Source of the DNA: Candidatus Bathyarchaeia archaeon
GTDB lineage: Archaea; Thermoproteota; Bathyarchaeia; 40CM-2-53-6
Length of the DNA: 64,000 nucleotides
Direction of reading: 5' to 3'
Assembly: GCA_050013255.1 (NCBI GenBank)
Contig: JBEKFP010000001.1
Coordinates: 1,343,938-1,407,937, forward strand
The position numbers were made by a program, and so were the translations under genes. Positions 33,997-59,782 of this stretch are shown piece by piece. Below the pieces are notes generated by a model that did not search any database, was not told the DNA's origin, and saw nothing but the letters and a program-made list of their open reading frames with translations. Every line of letters starts with the position of its first letter. Position 1 is the first letter of the stretch.

Positions 33997-34133
33997 GGCC
34001 GCCGTAGCGTAGAGGAGTCCTAAACTCCGCGAAGCTTGGTAGCGTATAGACCCTCCTTGGGGTACAGGGCTGTGGACCCTACGGGGTGGGTTCAAAGCGT
34101 CGCCAAAACGACGTGAAAGTCCCACCGGCGGCC
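33997..34133 (+). tRNA. tRNA-His(GUG) with encoded G-1 and three BHB introns (15/16: 34013-34034; 29/30: 34050-34067; 59/60: 34097-34119)
   Basis: Removing the introns gives G-GCCGCCG TA GCGT AGCTTGGTA GCGT A TAGGG CTGTGGA CCCTA CGGG GTGGG TTCAAAT CCCAC CGGCGGC C; anticodon 34072-34074. Confidence 0.9.
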
Positions 34134-34161
34134 CTCAACAATTCATTTTTGAAGTAGAGGC

Positions 34162-34437
34162 GTGAATTCCTACGATAATCAGGTTGAAGGATGGTGGGTT
34201 AGAATCATCGATCGGATGCTGAGGCGAAGCGGGCCTGGTACGTGTGAAATCTGCGAGAGGAAACCTGCAACAAGGAAGGCGAAGTTTACCGCGCAATCTC
34301 TTCAATCAACCTCTATGCCCTTGTTTGACGAGGAGTCGCTCGTTGCGGGCGAATTTGAGAAGAAGGTATGTGAAGAATGCCTGACCTCCTTGCAGAACGC
34401 AAAGAACGTAACGGAACTCACCTTCGAACGATTGTGA
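34162..34437 (+). CDS. Small zinc-finger hypothetical protein
   Basis: CEIC...VCEEC pairs. Confidence 0.55.
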   Translation: MNSYDNQVEGWWVRIIDRMLRRSGPGTCEICERKPATRKAKFTAQSLQSTSMPLFDEESLVAGEFEKKVCEECLTSLQNAKNVTELTFERL

Positions 34438-34557
34438 GCAAGTTTAACCCAACTTTGAGCATCTTGTTCAGAAATCACTGTGAAAGAATTCTCGCTCATC
34501 TGATCTGCGCGGAGGCGGGAAGGGTTAAAGGTTCGAGTCAGAATCTGTAGAGAAAGT

Positions 34558-34673
34558 GGGCCGGTAGTTCAGCCTGGTATGCCAAGTGTTCGCTGGGCCA
34601 AAGAACGTCCGGTTTGCAAGTTCTTCACCAAGCTTCCGGAAGGTCGCGGGTCCGAATCCCGCCCGGTCCACCA
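34558..34673 (+). tRNA. tRNA-Ala(UGC) with two BHB introns (21/22: 34581-34602; 37/38: 34619-34634), CCA encoded
   Basis: Acceptor GGGCCGG/CCGGTCC with G3:U70; anticodon TGC 34615-34617; cloverleaf restored after intron removal. Confidence 0.92.
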
Positions 34674-35136
34674 AATAAATGTCGATTACCAGAGCCGGCT
34701 AGTGGCGGCCCAGTGAGCGGGAGTGATTCTCTATAGTATCGCTACAGGCGGCGGTGCATACTGCACAGGGATTGGGAACCTGAATCTGACGTTATTTACC
34801 GGATAGAACACTAAAGGCGGTTGAGGCTGGCACTCTATCGGGACCATTATCGGTGCGGCGAAGTAAACGTAATTCATTGTTTCTTACCTTTCGCTTATAA
34901 GCCGCTCAGAGGTCACATAAACGTTTCCGGTCCGCCCTGAATTTGATGAGTGTTCATCTTTACGTTCCCCCTATAAATCAACAGCTTGGTGTCAACGTGT
35001 TTTGACTAACTGGTGCTTGCTTAACCTGCGCCCGGACCGTTACGGCTCCCAATTCAAGCATGTTTTTGCCTACTGAGAATGTGACAATTGTTATGTGATT
35101 CGTTAGCCGAAGTTTAGTGTTTACTGAGGTTTCAAG

Positions 35137-36075
35137 ATGGAACCCGCACCTGTTTTTCTGCCGGCTCCTGCAGTTGTAGAAGACAGATCAAAGCCGGTTG
35201 TTATTCGGCCCCCAGAAGTCAACGGGGCACACGATTACGCTGTGATTGGGTACTTGCTCGTATTTCTCATGACCCTTCCTTGGTTCATAATTGTCCTCAC
35301 GATAGGTGCCTTCGGCTTATTGGCCTCACCCTACCTTCCATTCCCGGTCATACTCCCGCCCGTCTTGCCCGTGTGGTTAGTCAGCATACCGTTGATTGGG
35401 CCGCTTCTGTTAATCCTGACATTCCCTGGCGTAGGGCTTACCCCTAGCTGGTTCGTCTACTTGGGCTTTGGCGCGATAGGCCTTCTAGCCGTCCTGATCT
35501 TCATTGCAATCGTTTACTTCGGAACCGTACGCAACATTAACAAGGGCCGATACGAAAAGGCACGAAGTGCAGCGCTATTTTTTGCGGTTCTCTTCCTAAT
35601 CCCAGTCTTCCTGGTTCTAGTTGCACCGGCGTCCTTCTTCCCCACGGTAGTCTTGCTACTTCCAGCATTCTTCTTCTTCATGACATACGGCCGGCTTGGC
35701 GAAGTTATAGCGAAATATGGCCCCGTCGCAGTTTTGGGTGAAGCAGTCCCGGGTGTAGGTGTAGCCGGTGGTCCTCCAGGGCCTATGTTTGGCGGACCTC
35801 CGCCAATGGGCGGCCCGTTTGCAGGTCCACCAATGGGTGGTCCGTTTGCTGTGGGACCGATGGGTGGCTCAATGCCTGGTGGACCGATGGGTGGCCCAAT
35901 GCCTGGTGGACCGATGGGTCAATTTCCGGGTCAGATGGGCATGCCTGCTCCTTCAGCTCCTGCACCAGCGCCAAAGACACCTTTGTGCCCCACCTGCGGT
36001 AGGGACCTGTACTACTCAGCGAACCACAGGCGATGGTACTGCCAGACGTGCGATGGCTCTTCCACCCACCTCTAA
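35137..36075 (+). CDS. Membrane protein with Gly-Gly-Pro-Met repeat tail and C-terminal zinc ribbon
   Basis: Multiple TM helices; GGPMGG repeats; CPTCG...WYCQTC. Confidence 0.75.
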   Translation: MEPAPVFLPAPAVVEDRSKPVVIRPPEVNGAHDYAVIGYLLVFLMTLPWFIIVLTIGAFGLLASPYLPFPVILPPVLPVWLVSIPLIGPLLLILTFPGVGLTPSWFVYLGFGAIGLLAVLIFIAIVYFGTVRNINKGRYEKARSAALFFAVLFLIPVFLVLVAPASFFPTVVLLLPAFFFFMTYGRLGEVIAKYGPVAVLGEAVPGVGVAGGPPGPMFGGPPPMGGPFAGPPMGGPFAVGPMGGSMPGGPMGGPMPGGPMGQFPGQMGMPAPSAPAPAPKTPLCPTCGRDLYYSANHRRWYCQTCDGSSTHL

Positions 36076-36076
36076 A

Positions 36077-36937
36077 CTACCCGAACTGTCTCAGTTGCTT
36101 AACGTGTCCCAAGTAGGTTCCATCCAGTAGGTGCACCTCTGCATCTTCAACGTCAACTGCACCCGACCTCAGAACGGGCCCAAGGCGTTCGCCCGCATGT
36201 GTTTCTTCAATCCTCCGAGAATTCACTGGACGCCCGCCAAGGAAATCATTGAATGGCGGGACGAAGACGCAACGTGTCGCTGAGAGTCTAACATGAAACC
36301 TTTCTTTGAGAATCTTTTCAAGGTCGCCTTTAGGTTGAATTCCCGCGGCCTTCAAGGTCCCTCGAAGCAGTTTCTTCGGATCGCAAGAAGCCGTAACCCA
36401 TGCTGGTCTGGTCAACCTGTATCCCAAAGCGTCCCGGAGGGTAACCGCTGGATGAAGGTGTCCTAGAATTAGTGTCTCGCATCCCAATATTTCCGGGGAG
36501 GGCCAGGCATGTCCATGCAGCAACCCAAACCGTCCCCAGAGCGCTAGGCCCGTGGGAGAGACAATCTCAAGCTTCGACGGTGTCAGCGGTTCCAAGTTGC
36601 CGTCATGGTTGCCCAAAATAACCGTTACAGAGGGAACTAACTTCAGCAGCGCCTCAAAGAATTCTGGGACATCCCTCCATTCTTCCAACTCCGCGCCGGT
36701 TACGCTATGCTTCACATCGCCTAGCATGATAATGCGTGAGGGGTGTTCCTTCTCAATGATTGCCCTAAGCCTTTGAAGCATTTTGCCGGTTTGCGATGGA
36801 ATGTGGATTCCTTGTTGGGATAGCGTGACCTCCCAGCCAATGTGAAGGTCGCCGACGACGACCACCCTCTCACCGCGTCGCCGCAGCAGCAGGGCGGGTT
36901 CCGATCCGATTGGTTTGAGCGCGTTCAAGGGCGACAC
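36077..36937 (-). CDS. Metallophosphoesterase (calcineurin-like)
   Basis: GDLHIG, LGDVKH, GNHD, HGH and GHLHP motifs. Confidence 0.9.
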   Translation of the reverse strand: MSPLNALKPIGSEPALLLRRRGERVVVVGDLHIGWEVTLSQQGIHIPSQTGKMLQRLRAIIEKEHPSRIIMLGDVKHSVTGAELEEWRDVPEFFEALLKLVPSVTVILGNHDGNLEPLTPSKLEIVSPTGLALWGRFGLLHGHAWPSPEILGCETLILGHLHPAVTLRDALGYRLTRPAWVTASCDPKKLLRGTLKAAGIQPKGDLEKILKERFHVRLSATRCVFVPPFNDFLGGRPVNSRRIEETHAGERLGPVLRSGAVDVEDAEVHLLDGTYLGHVKQLRQFG

Positions 36938-37029
36938 TTCTCGCTAAATTGAGATGTCCACTGGGTTATGTGTTCATCCCCAAGGCGAACAAAAGGTTAG
37001 ATAGTTCGCGTAGATTTTCAGCAGAGCGT

Positions 37030-37144
37030 AGCCCGGTGGTGTAGTGGACAGTTCAAACCCGCAGAAGCATAGAGGGCTTTGGACCCTCCGACGGGAGTTC
37101 GAAAGGCATCAAGAAAATGTCCGAACCTCTCCCCCGGGCTACCA
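37030..37144 (+). tRNA. tRNA-Gln(UUG) with two non-canonical BHB introns (D-loop: 37050-37064; 59/60: 37104-37127), CCA encoded
   Basis: Acceptor AGCCCGG/CCGGGCT; anticodon stem GAGGG/CCCTC; anticodon TTG 37079-37081. Confidence 0.92.
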
Positions 37145-37158
37145 ATTGATTCAGGTCA

Positions 37159-37470
37159 TTACATTTTCAATTCGATTCCGACAGTTCGCTTGATTAATTG
37201 CGCTAGCACATCCGCTTGGGCCTTTGGCCCTCCCTTGGAGGGTATCGTGACGACCAATGGGAATTCCTTCTTGGTTCGTTCGAGAATTGGTTGGATCCAT
37301 TCCATGACGGAGTCCGTGACCATGATAAGTGAGATTGTTTCGTCGGAATGGACTTTTCTGAATACTTTCTCAGCTTCATCCCTATCCTTCACGGCGTAGC
37401 TGTTCTTTATTCCTGTCACTTTGAAGTATGCGGAGGTAGGCTTGTCCGCGAGTAGCGCTATTTTGCCCAA
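37159..37470 (-). CDS. atpF: A/V-type ATP synthase subunit F
   Basis: KIALLAD......FKVTGI, PLVVTIP...G and LIKRTVGIE motifs. Confidence 0.85.
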   Translation of the reverse strand: MGKIALLADKPTSAYFKVTGIKNSYAVKDRDEAEKVFRKVHSDETISLIMVTDSVMEWIQPILERTKKEFPLVVTIPSKGGPKAQADVLAQLIKRTVGIELKM

Positions 37471-37491
37471 TGGTCATGACTCCGTTTTAAC

Positions 37492-37959
37492 TCAGAACTG
37501 TTTGAGGACATCTTCTCGTTCCATAACGTGACCGCAAAATGAGCAGCGCAGGCGGATTGGTTCTCGCCGGTCCACCCCGAACCTTGGTTCCACTGGTTCC
37601 CTAGAATTCGATATACACGAAGGGTTATCGCACTTTATGATTCCTCTAATGCTGGATGGTAATTCAACTACCTTCTTAGAAGATACATCGTAATTCCGAA
37701 CTATGTTAATAGTGGCGTTGGGTGCGATTAATGCGATTTTATCAACCTCGCTGGGTTTCAGTTCCCTATTCTGAATCTTGACAATATCCTTGTGCTGAAG
37801 CTGCTTACTCTCGACGTTCATCGCAACACTTACAACCTCGCCATCCTTCCCATTTATTCCAAGAATTTTCAGAACGTCAAGCGAGTAACCAGGCGTTATA
37901 TGATCGATAACTGTCCCGTTCGTAATCTTCCTAACGTACAGCTCTTGGCGCGTTTGCAA
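37492..37959 (-). CDS. pyrI: Aspartate carbamoyltransferase regulatory subunit
   Basis: KI.NGTVIDHI, KDIVKI, CDNPSCIS...RCSFC. Confidence 0.97.
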   Translation of the reverse strand: MQTRQELYVRKITNGTVIDHITPGYSLDVLKILGINGKDGEVVSVAMNVESKQLQHKDIVKIQNRELKPSEVDKIALIAPNATINIVRNYDVSSKKVVELPSSIRGIIKCDNPSCISNSREPVEPRFGVDRREPIRLRCSFCGHVMEREDVLKQF

Positions 37960-38263
37960 AACCTTTCAACTGCTCCAATGTTTGCCAACCGTTATTTAAC
38001 CCTGAAAAAAGTAGAGTTCAATGCGGGCTTCTAGAAAGAAATGAGAGAACGCTTCTTCAAGGCGTCTCCTCAGCGATCTTCGAACGGCATCCTACAATCC
38101 CGACTTGAAATATAGCTTACGGCCAAATCCTATTCTACAACTATTTCCACATGCCAAGAGGCTAGGCAACGTAACCTACTTCGAACCTGGACGCTGCGTA
38201 TGATAGAACTAGGGAATAGGTGCTTATTAGTCGTGGGAACATTGGGCTTCTGGCGCGTGGCTA

Positions 38264-39184
38264 ATGGAATTTGCGGGAAGAGACATTGTATCAATCAAAG
38301 ACTTCTCTCGTGAAGAGATTGACTACATTCTGAAAACAACTGATTCCTTAGAGCCGATGGCGAGGAAGGGATCCCATGGTCTAGACGGGAGGATCATGGC
38401 CACGTTGTTCTTTGAACCTTCTACTAGGACCAGGCTAAGCTTCGAATCAGCAATGTACCGGCATGGTGGAAATTGCATTGGTTTCGCGGAACCGAAAATT
38501 TCCTCAGTTGAAAAAGGGGAGAACCTAGCAGACACGGTCCGAGTCGTGGAAAGTTACGCTGACATCCTCGTAATACGTCACCCACTGGAAGGGGCTGCTC
38601 GGCTCGCGGCCGATTTCGCATCCGTCCCAGTCATCAACGCCGGTACCGGTGCAGAAGAACACCCCACTCAAGCCATGCTTGACCTGTACACAATTCGCAG
38701 GGAGCTTGGGAAGATTGACGGGCTGAACATCGCTCTCGCGGGCGACTTGAGGTACGGCCGCACCGTTCACTCTCTAGCCTACGCCCTGTCTCTTTACAAT
38801 ATCAACCTCTACCTAGTGTCCCCTCCCTTGTTGAGGCTGCGTAAAGAAGTCCTAGAGGAGGTAAGTGGACGTGTCAAAGTGCAGGAGTTCGAGGAACTCT
38901 CTAAAGTAATGCCCCAAGTTGACGCACTCTACATGACCCGGATCCAGAAGGAGAGGTTCGGCTCCCTGGAAGATTATGAAAAAGTGCGCGGCTCTTACAG
39001 GCTCAGCGCGGCCGACCTGACCCGGGCTAAACCGAAGATGATCATAATGCATCCGCTCCCCAGGGTCGACGAAATCGAGTACAGCGTTGACAATACGCCA
39101 CATGCGAAATACTTCAAACAGGTATGGTACGGATTACTAGTTCGAATGAGCTTAATTGGGCTGGTTCTTGGCGCGCTAAAGTAG
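38264..39184 (+). CDS. pyrB: Aspartate carbamoyltransferase catalytic subunit
   Basis: FFEPSTRTRLSF, HPTQ, GDLRYGRTVHS and MHPLPR motifs. Confidence 0.98.
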   Translation: MEFAGRDIVSIKDFSREEIDYILKTTDSLEPMARKGSHGLDGRIMATLFFEPSTRTRLSFESAMYRHGGNCIGFAEPKISSVEKGENLADTVRVVESYADILVIRHPLEGAARLAADFASVPVINAGTGAEEHPTQAMLDLYTIRRELGKIDGLNIALAGDLRYGRTVHSLAYALSLYNINLYLVSPPLLRLRKEVLEEVSGRVKVQEFEELSKVMPQVDALYMTRIQKERFGSLEDYEKVRGSYRLSAADLTRAKPKMIIMHPLPRVDEIEYSVDNTPHAKYFKQVWYGLLVRMSLIGLVLGALK

Positions 39185-39247
39185 GCATGGTGTTACCTAA
39201 GGTAACGCTTATATGAGGACTTTCCTCAACATATTACCAGACCGGAG

Positions 39248-40000
39248 ATGCGATTAGAAGTACTCCCATCCTCGCGAAAACGCCGAGTTCTGCCCATGCA
39301 CGTAGTGAACTACACGGCGTTTCGAGAAGACTTCCGCACAGATGAGGACGAGAGTGAACTACATCTCTTAGAGGAGTTTCACGCCGCCCGAGTTCTTTCC
39401 CAGAGCGGTGACGTGGATACCTTTGTCGGACCAATTCTTTACGACCCCGAGAAGCATTCGCATCGGTTCACCCCTGACCTGGCCGGAGTCGAAGGGGGCA
39501 CTGTAACTGCAGTTTTCTGTGAAACAAGAGCGCCTGACGAAGCGCTACTGAAAGACTTGGGAGTAATAGACGAGGCCGAGAACTCGAAAGCTGTCGTAGT
39601 CTACCCGTCTAGGGTAAACTCCAACCCTATAGATTCCAGGTTCCCCGACGCGGTTGACTCAGGCAAGTTCGTAATCGAACATCTGAATTGGCGAGACCGA
39701 GGGCTAGAAAGGGCTTTTCGGGAAGCACTAGAACTCATGGACCTGTTATGTAATGAAACACGAGTGAAAATGCTCCTCCCACTGCTTGAGGCCCCTCAGG
39801 GCAAGAAGAATTTCAGGGAAGGAATAAACCCTAAACTCATCTACGAAAACGTCCCCCTTCTGAGAGCACACAAACTAATCGCCGAGCTATCAGACGACCT
39901 GTACGACCTTACTCCAATTGGCAAGACAATCCTCGGCGAATACTTGGCATTCGTTGAGAAAGTTAGGGGTCTGCTCGAAAAAGCAGACAAGGAAGAATAG
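39248..40000 (+). CDS. Hypothetical protein with C-terminal winged-helix domain
   Basis: L.NETRVKML..L...Y.LTPIG pattern. Confidence 0.6.
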   Translation: MRLEVLPSSRKRRVLPMHVVNYTAFREDFRTDEDESELHLLEEFHAARVLSQSGDVDTFVGPILYDPEKHSHRFTPDLAGVEGGTVTAVFCETRAPDEALLKDLGVIDEAENSKAVVVYPSRVNSNPIDSRFPDAVDSGKFVIEHLNWRDRGLERAFREALELMDLLCNETRVKMLLPLLEAPQGKKNFREGINPKLIYENVPLLRAHKLIAELSDDLYDLTPIGKTILGEYLAFVEKVRGLLEKADKEE

Positions 40001-40016
40001 CTCGGGGTTGAACAAG

Positions 40017-40505
40017 ATGAGTACAATGATCGAACGTTTGGACTCTTCTCGTGACTTTAGTGACGTCTTCGAACTCGTCAAGAAATCAGCAGAACGCTCG
40101 CTAGGGCGACGTAGAGCTGGGCTGATGCTCTATCTGGCCAAGCTCCCAAAGCACATCGGCGGATACCACACTATGGGAACGAATGGCATCGTAATGAACA
40201 GGACAATTCTTGAAACGGTGACGCATGGCGCACGCTCTCTCCGTGAAATAAACTCATACGTCTATTCAATTCTGCTCCACGAGTATTTGCATTCACTCGG
40301 ATATGTGGAAGAGGGGGATGTGCGAAGGCTAGTGTACGACGTATCACTGGAAACATTCGGCCCAAACCATCCGGCTACTCAAATAGCTTCGAAGGGTCCG
40401 GGTGTCATGTTCCCCGAAATCTCACTTCACGATGTCCCAACGGAGTCGCCAGATGTTGAAGTGATTCCGGATTTGGAGAGAAGTAGCCAACGTTACATTA
40501 GTTAG
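40017..40505 (+). CDS. Zincin-like metallopeptidase domain protein
   Basis: LLHEYLHSLG motif. Confidence 0.75.
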   Translation: MSTMIERLDSSRDFSDVFELVKKSAERSLGRRRAGLMLYLAKLPKHIGGYHTMGTNGIVMNRTILETVTHGARSLREINSYVYSILLHEYLHSLGYVEEGDVRRLVYDVSLETFGPNHPATQIASKGPGVMFPEISLHDVPTESPDVEVIPDLERSSQRYIS

Positions 40506-42813
40506 ATACCGTGTAGGATACCCGCCTTTCCACACTTCTCTTCTTTGCCTCAGGCCAGAGGCTGAATGGTAGCAGACCGTAAGAAGATCTGCCAAGATGC
40601 GTGATCTTGTCTGACTCGCAGTTGCTGCATTTCGGAGTTATTCCTGGATCAGTGTGGTTGCAGACACTGCACGCTGAATAGTTTGATGTATAAACCAAAA
40701 ACTTGCAACCAGAATCAAATGCCTTCGCTGTAAGTCTCATGAGTGCGGGCGCCGTCGAATCAGGCGAGATGCAGACTAAGCTGAGGTGGCCGCCAGGCGT
40801 CGCGGATTGAAATCTCGACTCCAAATCAAGCCTGCTATCGATAGTCATTTTGGTTGTCAGCGGGATGGTCGGTAAGTCGGTGTAGTAGAATAGCCCTCGA
40901 GACCCGTCCGCTACGATCGCTGCCCTACCATATTGCTCAATGTCCAACTCCGCAAGCCTTCCCGCGGCTTCGTCTCCGGGCCTTTGTGAAGCGGAGATAC
41001 GCATTTCTGATTCCTCCGAAGCAGACTTTAGCAGGCTCGAAACTTCTTGCAATATCTTTAACCCGAAGTCTGCCGCCGCCCCATCTCGTTCCATCTTAAG
41101 TCCCGTGTGGGCTTCAACGGCTTCACTCAGGCCAATGAATGAGAGATTGTAGGACGAATTCTTCTCGTAGAAGTAAGGTGCGGTCCCACTCTCTCCAGCC
41201 AATAGGTGCAGAAGTGGTTGTTTCATGCGTTCGCTGATGAATTTTTTCTTGACTTTGAAACCTTCAACAGTGAGCGAGACCGTCTCCCTGAGTTGTGCTG
41301 AGAATTTTCCATCGTTCTTCTTCGCCTGGTAGGCGATCCTAGGTAGATTCAAGAAAATGGTGTCCATGCTACCTGTTCTGACGCAATCAGCGTCCCAGTG
41401 ATTAGTCCATTCATCGCCCAGCCTGAGCCCCGTGCCGGAGTAACTGCTCTTCTCTCCATCCTCACTAAGCTGAAACACGGGTATGCTTCGTTGGGCCGCT
41501 AGTTCGTGCGCTTTCTCAAGCATGGCTCTAGCCCGCTCATCACTCAACGCCTTACGCCCAACCCTTACTACCAGGTGGGGGAGAATGGGGGGCCTCGATT
41601 GCGACATCTTCTGAAACGCTTCGATTGTCGCACCCGCCAACAGGCGGCTTTCCTCACCATAGTCTGAATACTTGCTTGCCGCTTTACCCCCTGGCCCAAT
41701 CGCATCCTCCTGCGAAATGAATTCGGGGGTGATCAAGTCAATTGAGATTGAAATGCCAGCTTGGGGGCTACTCGAAGGGATATCCCTCCGCATTGAAGTG
41801 AGAAAATAATACAGACCATTTGAAATGTCCCCCGCCGTTCTTCCCCGGACGTATGGAGATAGGAAGGTGTTGAAGAACTCAACTGTCTGCTCCCCCGAAA
41901 CCTCACCCGCTCCAATTTCTAACACTTGACGGACTAGGGCAAGCGCCGCCTCAAATGAATCAGGTGGCAACATTCCGAATAGACTGTTTCTGAGGAAGTA
42001 GCGAATGTCGTGGATTATCTCATTTGGAGTGAGAATCCAATTTTCCAAATTTGCTATGTGAATTTCGCCTGATAGGTGGGCGTCCGCCAGTTTGTGGGGA
42101 AGGCAGTTAAGCAAAACATATTCCGATAGAACTGACCTTGCGGAGGAACGTTGCACATACTCCGCGCTAAGCTGTTTATCGCCCGCAGTTTTGATGAGTT
42201 GGGCAACATCGTAAACTGGCATACCGAGCCTTGTGAGCTTGTGGCGGTACTCTTCCAACTTCTTTTCAATTAAGATCGCATTAACGAACTCACGGATCAG
42301 GGGTGCGGTAAGATACGCCGTCTTCAACCTGATCAGCCTATCCTCAGCCTCAGCAGCTATCTCATCCGCAATCTCTTGTGGGACACCCGCCTCGACAACC
42401 AGTGATTTTGCGATCTTGTTCCTGTGAAATTCCTCTATGGCAAGCCTGGAAGATCTGACGTATAGTTTTCCGCGCTTTACATTCACATATTCATCCAAAT
42501 CTCTGGAGAAGGAAACAATCATTCGACCGAGTTCAGTGACCTCATATCGTTTCGTCTTCTTCTCAAGCGTGACTAGGCCGGTGTCCGTTAGGCTTCGGAG
42601 ATGGTAAACAAACTTCCCAGCGTCGCGCACAGGGTCGAGTTTGAGCTGGAACATTATCTCCGTGTACTGTAGAGAGCCCTTCGTTGAGAGAAGTCGCAAA
42701 ATCTGTAGTCGGACCGGGGCAGACGCGGCATTGAAGATGCCCGCACCAACTCTCTCCGATGAACGAAACAAACAATTACCGCCCAGAAGATGGCTCGCAA
42801 CCACTATAGGCAT
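40498..42813 (-). CDS. ArsR-type HTH + ATP-cone + class III ribonucleotide reductase (NrdD)-like protein, catalytic motifs degenerate
   Basis: R..IL..L...YHL..L...GLV HTH; ATP-cone LTAPLIREFVN..L; ADAHLSGEIHI, NLPRIA, IGLSEAV, GGH, CxxC...CxxC; C-terminal RSSYG in place of RxxGY. Confidence 0.85.
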   Translation of the reverse strand: MPIVVASHLLGGNCLFRSSERVGAGIFNAASAPVRLQILRLLSTKGSLQYTEIMFQLKLDPVRDAGKFVYHLRSLTDTGLVTLEKKTKRYEVTELGRMIVSFSRDLDEYVNVKRGKLYVRSSRLAIEEFHRNKIAKSLVVEAGVPQEIADEIAAEAEDRLIRLKTAYLTAPLIREFVNAILIEKKLEEYRHKLTRLGMPVYDVAQLIKTAGDKQLSAEYVQRSSARSVLSEYVLLNCLPHKLADAHLSGEIHIANLENWILTPNEIIHDIRYFLRNSLFGMLPPDSFEAALALVRQVLEIGAGEVSGEQTVEFFNTFLSPYVRGRTAGDISNGLYYFLTSMRRDIPSSSPQAGISISIDLITPEFISQEDAIGPGGKAASKYSDYGEESRLLAGATIEAFQKMSQSRPPILPHLVVRVGRKALSDERARAMLEKAHELAAQRSIPVFQLSEDGEKSSYSGTGLRLGDEWTNHWDADCVRTGSMDTIFLNLPRIAYQAKKNDGKFSAQLRETVSLTVEGFKVKKKFISERMKQPLLHLLAGESGTAPYFYEKNSSYNLSFIGLSEAVEAHTGLKMERDGAAADFGLKILQEVSSLLKSASEESEMRISASQRPGDEAAGRLAELDIEQYGRAAIVADGSRGLFYYTDLPTIPLTTKMTIDSRLDLESRFQSATPGGHLSLVCISPDSTAPALMRLTAKAFDSGCKFLVYTSNYSACSVCNHTDPGITPKCSNCESDKITHLGRSSYGLLPFSLWPEAKKRSVERRVSYTVSN

Positions 42814-42949
42814 GAATCGATGTTTAAAAAATTGTAGTTGCAGTCATTCCTTCGTCAAGGAACGCGAAATCTCCGCAGTTACCATCATTGAGAATCTTTA
42901 TCTTTACTCAGCATGCGAGGGGCTTCTATCCAGCACAGGTTGGTTGGAA

Positions 42950-43465
42950 ATGGATGAAATGCGAATGCGGGACGACGATTACAAAACGCTAGCGAAATTG
43001 GAAGAAGCGTTCGAAAGAAAGGATCTTTCATACTTCAAATCTTTTCTCCAAAACTCGAAGGGGCTCCCTCTCTTATTGCGTGTTCACTCAGTCTGTATGC
43101 TTGAGCACATTGGAAGCGAGGAAATGGTGGAGTCTTTGTGTGTGGTCCTCGCAGAAGATGCAAGCCCGCTTACAAGGCATGAGGCTGCGTTCACCCTGGG
43201 CCAGTTAGGTTACCGTTCTGCTGTACCCGCGTTGGTTGAGGCAATGCTTCATGACGAGAGCCCAATCGTCCGACACGAATCGGCTGTAGCACTGAGTTCC
43301 ATAGGCGACGATGGAGTGGTTCCAGATCTGAAGAAAGCGATTGAAGATGAAGATGAGGACGTGCGCAATTCGGCGTTAATCGCCTTCGAATACCTGGGTT
43401 ACATCCGCCGGAAAAGGGAAAGCGCTGGCGACAAGTTTGCGGTTAAACCGAAGATCAGGCTGTGA
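42950..43465 (+). CDS. HEAT-repeat (PBS lyase/DOHH-like) protein
   Basis: RHEAAFTLGQ and VRHESAVALSSIG repeats; ATG 42950 preferred over the ORF-track start. Confidence 0.85.
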   Translation: MDEMRMRDDDYKTLAKLEEAFERKDLSYFKSFLQNSKGLPLLLRVHSVCMLEHIGSEEMVESLCVVLAEDASPLTRHEAAFTLGQLGYRSAVPALVEAMLHDESPIVRHESAVALSSIGDDGVVPDLKKAIEDEDEDVRNSALIAFEYLGYIRRKRESAGDKFAVKPKIRL

Positions 43466-43501
43466 AGCATTTAAGCGAGTAGCCTGTCCCTACTTGGCCT
43501 A

Positions 43502-43677
43502 GGGGCGGTGGTCCAGGCCACGAGTCTACCCATCGTGGGGACAACTTGGTCTAAGATAGCGAAAACCAGTTCGCCTTGAAACCGGTCTCGGGACCAAAAA
43601 TACTGAACAGCGAGTACACCGGTGATCGAGGGTTCAAAATGGCCGGGAAGGTCATGATATTCCCTCCCGCCCCACCA
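43502..43677 (+). tRNA. tRNA-Pro(CGG) with four BHB introns (15/16: 43517-43544; 25/26: 43558-43580; 37/38: 43593-43616; 59/60: 43639-43660), CCA encoded
   Basis: Spliced 79-nt product GGGGCGG TG GTCC AGCTTGGTCTA AGAT A CCGGT CTCGGGC ACCGG TGATC GAGGG TTCAAAT CCCTC CCGCCCC ACCA; TATA-like TTTAAG at 43470. Confidence 0.92.
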
Positions 43678-43696
43678 ACGTTTTCACTTGGCGGGG

Positions 43697-44443
43697 TCAC
43701 ATCTCATATCCCGCATGCATGAATGTATGGGGTGCACCAAACGATGGGATGAAGACATCTTCATATTTCACATTCGAGAGGAACTGTCTACTCACCCTAT
43801 CTGCCAAGCTCCTCATTCGCGGGCTGTAAGCTAGCTCCACTGACGATCCGACGTACTGACTGCAACGACCTTTGCATCTCTCTTTGATATCCGCGTACAA
43901 TCGTTTCAGTGTGGCCGAATTGTTCCGGAAACCAAAAGGCCTCTCGGTAAGATCGATGATAGCAGCATCAAATCCATCGTCCGTGGAATGAAGATACTTG
44001 AAAGCATCACTGATCAAGATTCTAACCCTCGGGTCTCTGAACGCCCGATCTGCCCCCTTGATGTACTTCCTGCAAGATTCGACAAGCAATGCGTCAATCT
44101 CAACGACCTGGACACGCTTGATTGAGGGTGATTTAAGCAGTGTCAGTACCGTCTGCCCGCTACCGCCCCCTAGCACAACCACGCGTGCCACTCGATTTCT
44201 TCTAGCAGTACTGCAGAGGGCTTCGTTGAAAGTCCGCGAATCGTACGCCGTATGCTGGAGATTATTGTCGAGAAATAACATTCTACCATAAGCATCGTTA
44301 TCGATTATGTCTATTTTCTGATATCTCGACTGTTCCGAAAAACAGAGCCTCATAGCATGATAGGCCAAATGCAATCCAAGATAAGGTTCGTATACGATGT
44401 ATTCCGCTGCCGGGAAGCATACCTTACGGATACTTCTTGACAT
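43697..44443 (-). CDS. Spermidine synthase-like aminopropyltransferase
   Basis: S.YQKI.I......YGRMLFLD, VLGGGSG, VEID, DA..YL and IIDLTE motifs. Confidence 0.8.
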   Translation of the reverse strand: MSRSIRKVCFPAAEYIVYEPYLGLHLAYHAMRLCFSEQSRYQKIDIIDNDAYGRMLFLDNNLQHTAYDSRTFNEALCSTARRNRVARVVVLGGGSGQTVLTLLKSPSIKRVQVVEIDALLVESCRKYIKGADRAFRDPRVRILISDAFKYLHSTDDGFDAAIIDLTERPFGFRNNSATLKRLYADIKERCKGRCSQYVGSSVELAYSPRMRSLADRVSRQFLSNVKYEDVFIPSFGAPHTFMHAGYEM

Positions 44444-44504
44444 ACACTTCGACGGGCAGCCATAGGAACAATCTATATTAGAACTCCTCCGCGCATCCGA
44501 GCTA

Positions 44505-45287
44505 ATGCATCGTCCCCTTTACAACCAGCTCGTTGCTTACTACGAATCCATAGAAGGCCGGGATTGGCAGGGCGAAATTAAGCTCATCACTTCTTTCTTG
44601 AGGAATCATGGATCAAAATCTGTAGTGGACTTAGGCTGCGGGACTGGGTACCACGTGAGGGCGCTAGCGAAATTAGGGTTTGAGGCTGCTGGAATTGATA
44701 TTTCGAAACAGAATATTCGGTTTGCCAGAAGAAGGGCCAAGCACGAGAAGGTTCACCCGCGCTTTGTTGTGGGTAGCTACTATGAATGTTGTCCCGACGG
44801 AATCTTTGATGCGGCTCTCTGTTTAAACTGGTCTATTCCTGTGAAAGACGACGAGGTGAAACGATTTCTGGATAACACGTACTCCTTACTTCGACCGGAA
44901 GGGTTGCTGATTTTTGATTATGAGCGAGTCTCCCAAATTGTATGGAGCGACCTTGGAAAGGCAATCACAGAATCGTGGGATCTGGGTGGCAAGCTGATCG
45001 TAAGAGTTTCTGTTGGGCAGGTGGTGTCAAACGTGCTATATTCAAAAGACATCTACATTATCTACTCAAAGTCTTCCAAGCTGTCGGCACCGAGTGAACC
45101 GTCAAGGTACCAAGCCCCTAAAGGCACCCACGTTCAAACGTATGTTGATAGTTCCTATGTGCGCTTCTTTTCAGTGTCAGAAATAAGAGACTTCGCACAA
45201 CACTCCGGATTCAAAATGATTGCCACCTTCATGATACCGAGGAAGAAATACAGGCGTCACTATGCTGTCCTTATGAAGACCGCTTGA
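44505..45287 (+). CDS. Class I SAM-dependent methyltransferase
   Basis: VVDLGCGTG, GIDIS and LRPEG motifs. Confidence 0.88.
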   Translation: MHRPLYNQLVAYYESIEGRDWQGEIKLITSFLRNHGSKSVVDLGCGTGYHVRALAKLGFEAAGIDISKQNIRFARRRAKHEKVHPRFVVGSYYECCPDGIFDAALCLNWSIPVKDDEVKRFLDNTYSLLRPEGLLIFDYERVSQIVWSDLGKAITESWDLGGKLIVRVSVGQVVSNVLYSKDIYIIYSKSSKLSAPSEPSRYQAPKGTHVQTYVDSSYVRFFSVSEIRDFAQHSGFKMIATFMIPRKKYRRHYAVLMKTA

Positions 45288-45437
45288 ATGGAACTTTCAG
45301 TTGGATGTCGATCGTTCGCATTATAATTGCGACAAACTCAGCAATTTCCCTGCTAAAGCACAGCTCAATTTTGCAGTCACGGTGAATAACAGTTTTGTCC
45401 TCGGCACATTTGAAACCAAAGAAAGGTATGTGGGTTC

Positions 45438-46208
45438 ATGAAACGACTCATCGCCATCTTGATACTGTTGATGCTCTCGGTTCCGATGGGGGTTAACGCT
45501 CTTCCTCCGCGGTATGCTATTCCCAAAGGCCAAGCCCTGATTTTGTCCTCTCTGAACGAAACAAATCCTATGGGTCAATACGGCAAGAATGCTGTCTGGT
45601 ACTTGACGCATGCAGGATACAACGTAACATACCTAACCGATGGCCAAGTGACCGTCGATTTACTCCTAACCCGGATGAAGAACTACAACGTCGTGATCTG
45701 GCGAACTGACAGCTTCACCTGGAAGCACGTCACCTACTGGTGGGTTGGAGAAAAAGTGAACGATGGAGTACAGGACGAATACCCAGCCGATTTCGCACAA
45801 GGCTGGCTAAATGCCAACACTGGTATTGTTGGAATAAGTTCGGAGTTCTTCACAAATCACCTCGGGCCAAAAACTCTGACCGGTGTCTCGCTACTGATGT
45901 TCCTCTCGAGTGATGGCAATGCGGTTGCACCCATGTTTGTTACAGCGGGAGCTTCGTCAGTAATTTACTGCAACGGGTCGATTTCCCTTGAATTTGGCTT
46001 AATAGATGATCTCTCTATCCAAATGGTTGCATACCTAACCCAAGGAGAGAGCGTCTACTCCGCCGTGTACGCTACAGTGTCTCCATTCAACCAGGGACAG
46101 CAACCGAAAGACCCCCTTGACAATACATATGCCCCACCATTCTGGTACATCGGCGACGGTTCGGTAATAATTGCTTCAAGCATCCGTGCAACTCCTCACA
46201 TATCCTGA
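45438..46208 (+). CDS. Hypothetical secreted protein
   Basis: Signal peptide followed by an alpha/beta domain. Confidence 0.65.
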   Translation: MKRLIAILILLMLSVPMGVNALPPRYAIPKGQALILSSLNETNPMGQYGKNAVWYLTHAGYNVTYLTDGQVTVDLLLTRMKNYNVVIWRTDSFTWKHVTYWWVGEKVNDGVQDEYPADFAQGWLNANTGIVGISSEFFTNHLGPKTLTGVSLLMFLSSDGNAVAPMFVTAGASSVIYCNGSISLEFGLIDDLSIQMVAYLTQGESVYSAVYATVSPFNQGQQPKDPLDNTYAPPFWYIGDGSVIIASSIRATPHIS

Positions 46209-46495
46209 ACAATCCGTCGCTTCACGCAGCCGGTAGGGTATAGCATATCTTTGCGGTGAATTCGAACAACCCTACGAACGGTTAGATTCTGCGCCTAGTA
46301 TGCCACAGAACTTCCGATGTTTCGCAAGTACTGCAATCATGCCATGATTTTGAGATTCGAGAGTTTCGATTTCCACAGGGATGTGCCGGTGGCACCCCCA
46401 ACTGCTCTCAATACACAGGAGCAAACGGTTCGAGGCGATAAGCTGCCGCCCGTTCGAATCAAGGTGTCTAGTGAAATCTGACTAAGTGCAGCTGT

Positions 46496-47158
46496 TTATC
46501 GAAGGCGATTCCCGCAACTGTCACAGAAGTTTGCAGCGGGATGGTTAGGAGCACCGCAGTAAGAACAGGCGATTGTTGCCCAGGGCGTTGACTGGGGATA
46601 TACTTCTTGCTGTCGATAGTACGCTTGCTGAGGAGGAGGTTGGGTGTAGGTTGGCTGAGTTTGCGGCATGTATGGTGGGCCTCCTGGCGCCGGGACCATT
46701 TGCCGGCCGAAGGCGATTCCTCCGGCACGTCCGAAGAAGGCTCGAACATTGCGAGTGCTCAAGTACACAAGTATGAGTAGGTACAGGATGATTGGTACTA
46801 GGTCTGCGATATTCTCCAGCGTCAATCCTCCAGAAACTAAACTTGACACCAGACTTAGCACTCCAAAGATGAGTCCAATGATTGCCCCTACTATGCTAAG
46901 GCCCCACGCCCATCCTTTCCCGGCCCAAAGGCCGTACGCTAGCGCGAACGAAAGAATTCCAAGGCCGAATGCGACAAAACCGAGCAACAGGAGCGCCGTG
47001 GCAAGGAAGCCTCCACCTACGAGGGCCGTAGACACAACATAGGCGAAGATAAGTAGAATTCCGAGCCCTATGTCTCCAATCCCGCTAATGACTTGCAGTA
47101 TTGTGAGGATTGTTACACCAATGGGTCTTCCGGGACGTGGCATGTAAGGTGTGTACAA
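46496..47158 (-). CDS. Membrane protein with C-terminal double zinc ribbon
   Basis: RPIGVTIL; four TM helices; CSYCG....ANFCDSCG. Confidence 0.75.
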   Translation of the reverse strand: MYTPYMPRPGRPIGVTILTILQVISGIGDIGLGILLIFAYVVSTALVGGGFLATALLLLGFVAFGLGILSFALAYGLWAGKGWAWGLSIVGAIIGLIFGVLSLVSSLVSGGLTLENIADLVPIILYLLILVYLSTRNVRAFFGRAGGIAFGRQMVPAPGGPPYMPQTQPTYTQPPPQQAYYRQQEVYPQSTPWATIACSYCGAPNHPAANFCDSCGNRLR

Positions 47159-47272
47159 TTAACTCAGCTAACCTGTTACTCTAGGTTAAGGGGATAATGA
47201 AACCTCCGGAACGGCATATTTCAGTCTTCGCAATGATCTGATTAGTTCGAATTGGTGGAAACGAATTATGGT

Positions 47273-47419
47273 TGGTAGCGGGGGGTGGATGTTCGGGCGC
47301 GTGGCCTTTCGAACCACCGCTTGAGGAGTCTTTCAACTCAATCTCAGGGTTTCTCGCCAGGATATGAGCCCACCGCACGGGAAGGTTCTGCGGGTTAAAC
47401 CTGGCTACCCCACCCCGCT
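47273..47419 (-). tRNA. Initiator tRNA-Met(CAU) with four BHB introns (29/30: 47387-47371; 37/38: 47362-47351; 47/48: 47340-47320; 59/60: 47307-47290), CCA encoded
   Basis: Spliced product AGCGGGG TG GGGT AGCCAGGTTTA ACCC G CAGGG CTCATAA CCCTG AGATC GGTGG TTCGAAT CCACC CCCCGCT ACCA; A1:U72 and three G:C pairs in the anticodon stem mark it as initiator. Confidence 0.92.
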
Positions 47420-59474: not shown

Positions 59475-59782
59475 GGGTTGTGCGTGTTGGCCGTAACCCA
59501 CCTTCTGTTTTAGGCGACATTCATCTAATCGGGATACCCGCGCCTCAGGCGGCTTTCACGGGCGCCTATTATCCCTTTCACAGCGTGTGTAGGCATTTCA
59601 CCCTTACCGCCAGCCTCCTCAACGCAAGCGCATCATAGTCCACGGCTAGCGGAGGTATTTTTCTGCGCCTTAACCCAACCTCTCGGCTGGCACCTCACAG
59701 TGCCACGCGTCCGCCATGTGGGTGGAGTTTCCTCAGGCCCATTACACACAGGGCCCGGAGTCGCTCACCAACTCGCCAACCC
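59475..59782 (-). ncRNA. rnpB: Archaeal RNase P RNA
   Basis: Minus strand has GAGGAAACTCCACCC and AACAGAAGGTGGGTTA (the two P4 strands); terminal GGGTTG/CAACCC helix. Confidence 0.93.

Follow-up and report, generated by a model that had tools for sequence, protein, structure and literature searches.

A 64,000-nucleotide stretch of a Candidatus Bathyarchaeia archaeon genome (hereafter the window; contig JBEKFP010000001.1 of assembly GCA_050013255.1) carries five tRNA genes between positions 33997 and 47419, which together hold 15 introns: three in tRNA-His(GUG), two in tRNA-Ala(UGC), two in tRNA-Gln(UUG), four in tRNA-Pro(CGG) and four in the initiator tRNA-Met(CAU). Judged by sequence comparison, these are very probably functional, single-copy genes, each with a primary transcript that would contain two to four short introns of the bulge–helix–bulge (BHB) type. 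We infer with high confidence that the introns are removed by the BHB splicing usual in archaea, carried out by a heterotetrameric (αβ)2 endonuclease and the ligase RtcB; cleavage, ligation and any order of intron removal are likewise inferred. Each precursor would be transcribed from its own promoter, the endonuclease would recognise every strict or relaxed BHB motif and cut each 3-nt bulge behind its second base, leaving the exons for RtcB to join, with two to four rounds per molecule yielding a normal cloverleaf of 73–77 nt.

Standard gene finders reject nearly all of these loci. ARAGORN returned no tRNA in the window, and the Rfam tRNA model (RF00005) matched only the alanine gene, at 34558-34670, with 46.3 bits and insertions of 29 and 18 nt relative to the model. 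We used a scanner in which each BHB-like pair of sites is an optional jump in a graph and the remaining bases are checked for a cloverleaf. Its raw score counts 21 stem pairs and five T-loop bases, 26 being the highest possible value, and its refined score also weighs Watson–Crick content, BHB quality and the presence of an encoded CCA and deducts for every intron; the genome-wide search was anchored first on the T arm and acceptor stem. All 15 introns that the original prediction had assigned to five genes were recovered in this way, and neither ARAGORN, Rfam nor the scanner found a further tRNA in the window, which bears out the claim that every tRNA gene there is multiply interrupted. After splicing, the histidine, glutamine, proline and initiator genes reach cloverleaf scores of 26/26 and the alanine gene 25/26; the four-intron solution of the proline gene has 25/26. 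Identity features are restored as well, namely G-1 and C73 in tRNA-His, and A1:U72 together with three G–C anticodon-stem pairs in the initiator. ARAGORN, when given the spliced initiator candidates, called a tRNA-Met on the complement strand; the plus strand gave no solution, and the gene lies on the minus strand, a detail absent from the original prediction.

The introns measure 12–28 nt, and at every junction the cut site follows the second base of a 3-nt bulge that adjoins a 4-bp central helix (H), in which all four pairs are formed in 12 introns and three of four in the remaining 3, as had been read from the letters alone. Three introns occupy the canonical position 37/38 (Ala, Pro and initiator Met) and 12 are non-canonical. 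The latter include four at position 59/60 of the T-loop (His, Gln, Pro and initiator Met), and the others lie in the D-loop, at 25/26, at 29/30 (in both His and initiator Met) and in the variable loop. The 59/60 introns, said earlier to be unrelated in sequence, are indeed mutually only 45–58% identical. Six introns form a strict hBHBh' motif (H 4/4, with outer helix h and intron helix h' each of at least 2 bp), and nine are relaxed (HBh', hBH or 3/4 central pairs). A split or permuted arrangement is excluded: the exons of each gene are collinear within 112–176 nt, and no distant fragments occur in the genome.

The first four genes lie on the plus strand. The tRNA-His gene (33997-34133) encodes G-1 at 33997 and C73 at 34133. 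Its introns lie in the D-loop at 15/16 (34013-34034; 22 nt, H 3/4, h' 5 bp), in the anticodon stem at 29/30 (34050-34067; 18 nt, H 4/4, h 5, h' 3) and in the T-loop at 59/60 (34097-34119; 23 nt, a full hBHBh' with H 4/4, h 5, h' 5). The tRNA-Ala gene (34558-34673) has one intron at the 3' end of the D-loop, at about 21/22 (34581-34602; 22 nt, H 4/4, h 0, h' 3, a relaxed HBh'), and a second at the canonical 37/38 (34619-34634; 16 nt, H 4/4, h 5, h' 2). In the tRNA-Gln gene (37030-37144), the first intron follows the seventh base of the D-loop, at about 20/20a (37050-37064; 15 nt, H 4/4, h 0, h' 2), and the second is at 59/60 (37104-37127; 24 nt, H 4/4, h 5, h' 5). An equally scoring placement of the first glutamine intron at 37045-37060 was discarded on the strength of intron-less orthologs, which have the D-loop AGYGGACAA, and of a relative (G017) that is without intron 1.

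The tRNA-Pro gene (43502-43677), which has a C13–A22 mismatch, is interrupted in the D-loop at 15/16 (43517-43544; 28 nt, H 4/4 as GTCC/GGAC, h' 6), at 25/26 (43558-43580; 23 nt, H 4/4, h' 5), at the canonical 37/38 (43593-43616; 24 nt, H 4/4 as CTCG/CGAG, h 5) and in the T-loop at 59/60 (43639-43660; 22 nt, H 3/4, h 5, h' 5). A five-intron solution had the top refined score for this gene and was ruled out by the four-intron architecture of more than 15 relatives. The initiator gene (47273-47419, minus strand) runs from position 1 at 47419 to position 72 at 47277 and A73 at 47276, followed by an encoded CCA at 47275-47273, and the G–C pairs of its anticodon stem are G29–G31 with C39–C41. Its introns lie in the anticodon stem at 29/30 (47371-47387; 17 nt, H 4/4, h 1, h' 2), at the canonical 37/38 (47351-47362; 12 nt, H 3/4, h 3), in the variable loop at 47/48 (47320-47340; 21 nt, H 4/4, h 2, h' 5) and in the T-loop at 59/60 (47290-47307; 18 nt, H 4/4, h 5, h' 3). 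The histidine gene alone among the five does not encode CCA; CTC follows it (window 34133-34137), and the same holds in nearly all resolved relatives. CCA is encoded in the other four window genes and in most of the resolved tRNAs of the genome.

These five genes have no substitutes in the genome, which comprises 2.46 Mb in three contigs (C1–C3; G000 in the coordinates below). The Rfam scan and our scanner census find one gene each, genome-wide, for tRNA-His, initiator tRNA-Met, tRNA-Gln(UUG), tRNA-Pro(CGG) and tRNA-Ala(UGC). A BLAST search with the five genes returned self-matches only, except that the alanine gene also matched other alanine isoacceptors, and BLAST, Rfam scan and census alike revealed no additional copy of these genes in the genome, whether complete, partial or free of introns.

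Relatives provide an independent view of the same genes. Four gene sequences were each used as a query against 61 related genomes, which span 19 genera, and the same solver was applied to splice the matches. Across this set the spliced sequences are identical or nearly so, while the introns differ from genome to genome in their sequence and length and in whether they are present at all. MAFFT alignments gave identities of 0.90–0.99 for exons and 0.62–0.72 for introns; these figures understate exon conservation because short exons misalign, and the spliced sequences are the better evidence. Exons that stay invariant while the introns drift under structural constraint are characteristic of genes that are functional and spliced, and covariation within the intron helices indicates selection for splicing. 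If the loci were instead decaying pseudogenes whose insertions are never removed, with translation relying on other copies, their rejection by standard finders would be accounted for; given that they are the sole genes for their five functions, that their exons are invariant across species while the introns drift, and that the intron helices covary, we regard such decay as exceedingly improbable. The functional reading is also the one that the search for intron-less back-up copies, which the original prediction had named as part of a possible refutation, leaves standing.

The comparison further delimits the introns themselves. At 12 of the 15 positions at least one relative is without exactly the segment in question, the exceptions being His intron 1 and the two alanine introns. 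The resolved initiator genes of 22 relatives all splice to the same sequence as the window gene, except that a T-loop base differs in a single genome and position 72 differs in two others; these genes carry two, three or four introns. Intron 1 (29/30) occurs in genus g1 only and is missing from all other genera searched; intron 2 (37/38) is absent in L022, L023 and L025–L030; and intron 3 (47/48) is absent in L032 and L033, with an h' that varies through compensating changes. Some genera lack intron 2 and some lack intron 3. Intron 4 is present in every relative, at 15–25 nt and with differing h' sequences, and other genera have an initiator D-loop intron that is lacking in G000.

Over 15 genomes of the genus have a proline gene with the same four introns and mature sequence, introns 1 to 4 measuring 24–28, 18–25, 14–25 and 21–28 nt; in other genera the gene has one or two introns. 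Intron 1 is absent in L056, L057 and L061, intron 2 in L056–L059 and L061, and introns 3 and 4 both in L058, L059 and L064. The h' of intron 2 covaries (GCGAA/TTCGC versus GCGAG/CTCGC, and others), as does that of intron 4 (TGGCC/GGTCA, TGACT/AGTCA, TGATC/GATCA and TGGCT/AGCCA). For tRNA-Gln(UUG), two genomes (G043 and G051) have a wholly intron-less gene whose mature sequence is exactly as predicted from splicing, and intron 2 is absent in L113, L114, L117 and L124. In tRNA-Ala, every relative has the same two introns, of 17–30 and 15–32 nt.

About 27 distinct relatives share the conserved mature tRNA-His sequence; within the genus the gene has three introns, or four in the case of G015, and outside it one to three. 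Intron 1 is present in every relative searched and its h' covaries. Intron 2 is absent in several relatives (for example L082–L084 and L086) and its h' takes the forms CCC/GGG, CCA/TGG, CCG/CGG and CTC/GAG, and intron 3 is absent in L072, L086–L088 and L094. Together these distributions indicate that introns have been repeatedly gained and lost within the order, as exemplified by the initiator 29/30 intron of this genus only. In the closest relative, G014, the histidine locus L072 (G014:C9, 1514-2694) carries a tRNA-His whose T arm lacks an intron and has a different stem. Next to it comes a minus-strand open reading frame of 314 aa, which has two LAGLIDADG-like motifs by eye and no Pfam match, and about 1 kb downstream lies a remnant of the old 3' part including the T-loop intron; an insertion looks to have replaced the 3' end of the gene.

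How readily such structures arise by chance was assessed directly. The relaxed BHB criteria are met by about 1.4% of random (start, end) pairs (808,846 jumps over 1.41 Mb × 42 lengths), equivalent to about 0.6 candidate jumps per nucleotide. Because this permissiveness produced spurious 'tRNAs' with four or five introns at raw scores of 23–24, the refined score and a reversed-genome control were added. When the 2.46-Mb genome was reversed without complementing and passed through the same pipeline, refined scores peaked at 25.6 and no locus reached 26; in the real genome 33 loci score at least 26.1, and the five window genes score 28.8–30.4. The intron count might nevertheless have been inflated, with some introns misplaced or in fact retained expansions of the mature tRNA, a view that can draw on the density of relaxed sites, the spurious multi-intron solutions, the false fifth proline intron and the alternative registers of the first histidine and alanine introns. 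Against it stand the 12 positions set independently by relatives without exactly that segment. The remaining three (His 1, Ala 1 and Ala 2), if retained, would produce D-loops or anticodon loops of 23–32 nt, and Rfam treats both alanine segments as insertions. Taken together, we consider an inflated count quite improbable.

Several points weigh against reading all 15 segments as introns of functional archaeal genes. The outer helix is weak or absent (h 0–1) in His 1, Ala 1, Gln 1, Pro 1, Pro 2 and the first initiator intron, which by analogy would have to rely on the relaxed HBh' recognition known for (αβ)2 enzymes. His intron 1 has an alternative register at 34014-34033, Ala intron 1 is uncertain by ±1 nt, and no intron-less ortholog fixes the register of either. 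As the scanner accepts only BHB-type jumps, the BHB status of the introns in relatives is partly circular, although the evidence from presence or absence and from exon conservation is not. Finally, the genome bin has an estimated contamination of 8.55%, which is offset by the position of the window on a 1.4-Mb contig and by the recurrence of the same gene architectures in many relatives.

The fragmentation extends across the genome. The Rfam tRNA model finds 18 loci above its cut-off, whereas the scanner census resolved about 36 tRNA genes with about 2.1–2.3 introns each, in keeping with the original prediction of an extremely fragmented lineage that standard scans under-annotate. The best 32 genes hold 68 introns (2.1 per gene), and the addition of four weaker solutions brings the mean to about 2.3. 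This load is probably a lower bound, because about 20 further tRNA-like 3' ends have no solver solution; low-scoring solutions at C1:310035, C1:755912 and C1:855328 were considered unreliable. The only intron-less gene resolved is tRNA-Arg(CCG) (C2:260004-260077), and others include tRNA-Asn with three introns and tRNA-Leu(CAG) and tRNA-Pro(GGG) with four each. The tRNA-Trp(CCA) gene (G000:C2:632656-632880, plus strand) appears to have five introns, of about 28, 19, 61, 19 and 25 nt, the solver having missed the 61-nt intron; its ortholog in G029 (L054) has five introns and scores 26/26. Among the 68 introns, no pair from different genes is 80% or more identical; four pairs reach 70–75%, and none does so in a shuffle. 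The elongator tRNA-Met (G000:C2:730137-730243, plus strand) was solved only with a 21-nt 'variable arm', probably a further intron outside the BHB rules of the scanner.

The genome encodes machinery that would suit these substrates. It has two genes of the EndA family (PF01974), from which the type of endonuclease, a point that the original prediction had left to be identified, follows by sequence as the broad-specificity (αβ)2 form. The predicted α subunit (G000:C2:171513-172085, 190 aa) retains the catalytic region. Among solved structures it best matches the catalytic α subunits of the Aeropyrum, Sulfolobus and Pyrobaculum heterotetramers (1.5e-38, for 3P1Z_B, to 2.4e-28); one loop aligns with the crenarchaeal-specific loop of the A. 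pernix EndA. The predicted β subunit (G000:C1:301907-302470, 187 aa) is missing the catalytic histidine. Enzymes of the (αβ)2 type accept relaxed BHB forms (PMC4090602, PMC4033280). RtcB is encoded at G000:C1:110968-113778 (minus strand; L003/L004) in one open frame of 1039 aa. Its Pfam match is split into two parts (positions 1–60 and 49–426) about 1.4 kb apart, an interruption that looks like a large intein.

Why the introns are kept is a separate matter. The original prediction proposed that T-loop introns would destroy the att targets of integrases, and linked this to tRNA-like att repeats and an integrase relic in the window. Neither feature was found: the window has no Phage_integrase match and no partial tRNA copies. 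The underlying idea, that introns, especially those in the T-loop, are retained because they disrupt integrase attachment sites in tRNAs, is the published hypothesis of Randau and Soll as cited in PMC4090602. In its favour, each of the three Phage_integrase genes in the genome has a neighbour within 0.5 kb, a tRNA or a fragment of one, whose 3' half is free of introns. These pairs of integrase match and tRNA or 3' fragment are found at G000:C2:259232-260077, with the intron-less tRNA-Arg(CCG) mentioned above; at C3:28267-29228, with tRNA-Val(UAC) at C3:28267-28360; and at C3:131049-131945, with a 3' fragment at C3:131049-131072. They are compatible with the hypothesis, on three cases only. The window offers no integrase or att-like tRNA copy to add to them, most of its introns lie in the D arm or anticodon arm, outside the usual att region, and G014 has its 1-kb insertion directly at tRNA-His despite the T-loop intron of this lineage. 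We therefore find it unlikely that protection from integrases is what maintains the introns. Repeated tRNA-like 3' ends (T arm, acceptor and CCA, resembling tRNA-Pro(GGG)) were also observed at G000:C3:122293-138186, near the integrase at C3:131514, and at C2:295579; they may be att-type repeats from serial integrations.

The window is archaeal. It carries an archaeal RNase P RNA (window 59482-59776, minus strand; full-length match, 175 bits), and its G+C content is about 51%. The neighbouring genes checked are housekeeping genes (pyrB, pyrI, anaerobic ribonucleotide reductase and spermidine synthase). Metagenome-assembled genomes that bear the name Candidatus Bathyarchaeia, recovered from peat (SPRUCE) and from soils in Denmark, hold close relatives of the window's proteins. 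The window also contains a TPP riboswitch match (RF00059, 27281-27395, plus strand) that at 71 bits exceeds the gathering score, in an archaeal genome.

The kind of system is unchanged by these findings, which describe a new lineage for a known phenomenon in which four introns per gene is no longer the record. A search of the literature library found no paper on such tRNA fragmentation in Bathyarchaeia. In practical terms, routine annotation leaves these genomes seemingly without tRNA-His, the initiator tRNA and others, which skews estimates of completeness and inferences on codon usage in a group that abounds worldwide in soils and sediments. From an evolutionary perspective, the presence of zero to four introns in one ortholog with invariant exons offers dated, position-resolved gains and losses, which could test how BHB introns are acquired, a question that the Asgard census (10.64898/2026.10.13.758758) left open. 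For enzymology, the introns with minimal outer helices are natural substrates for probing how far (αβ)2 enzymes relax the BHB rule.

Comparison with the Thermoproteales (Pyrobaculum, Thermofilum and Caldivirga; Sugahara et al. 2007/2008, as reported in PMC4033280 and PMC8450103) shows much in common: short introns with strict or relaxed BHB motifs at many non-canonical sites, several introns per gene, an (αβ)2 endonuclease and genes missed by standard finders. The same reviews give three introns per gene as the archaeal maximum and Pyrobaculum calidifontis as the richest genome, with 71 introns in 46 genes (1.54 per gene), whereas the present genome reaches four introns, and apparently five in tRNA-Trp, at about 2.1–2.3 per resolved gene. 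Thermoproteales introns also form sequence families that cross tRNA types, 28% of them at 80% identity or more (10.64898/2026.10.13.758758), in contrast to the absence of any such cross-gene pair here, and their hosts are hyperthermophilic crenarchaea rather than a Bathyarchaeia archaeon of peat and soil. In the Thaumarchaeota, for which tRNAscan-SE 2.0 has a clade-specific BHB model (PMC8450103), membership of TACK, an EndA of the (αβ)2 type and non-canonical BHB introns are shared, but tRNA genes there carry far fewer introns, and none with four has been reported.

The closest parallel is found in the Asgard archaea. The maximum of three introns per gene given in the original prediction is outdated by the Asgard census preprint (10.64898/2026.10.13.758758), which counts 2.2 intervening sequences per gene, with as many as five in a single gene. 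This removes the novelty by the original prediction's own standard, the prior cataloguing of four-intron tRNAs. In three Asgard genomes, 92–95% of tRNA genes were found to be interrupted (Valentin-Alvarado et al. 2024). Shared with the Asgard archaea are the interruption of nearly all tRNA genes, about 2.2 introns per gene with up to five in one, D-arm introns missed by annotators, repeated lineage-specific gains, the lack of shared intron families and a wetland or soil habitat. The two differ in belonging to separate phylum-level lineages, the present genome being of the Bathyarchaeia within TACK/Thermoproteota, and the Bathyarchaeia case looks independent. We give an even chance to the broader proposal that this genus represents a third independent hyper-interrupted lineage after the Thermoproteales and Asgard archaea, with a load at least matching the Asgard record and gains continuing at the genus level. 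Were that the case, the group could serve for studying, in nature, how BHB introns enter genes.

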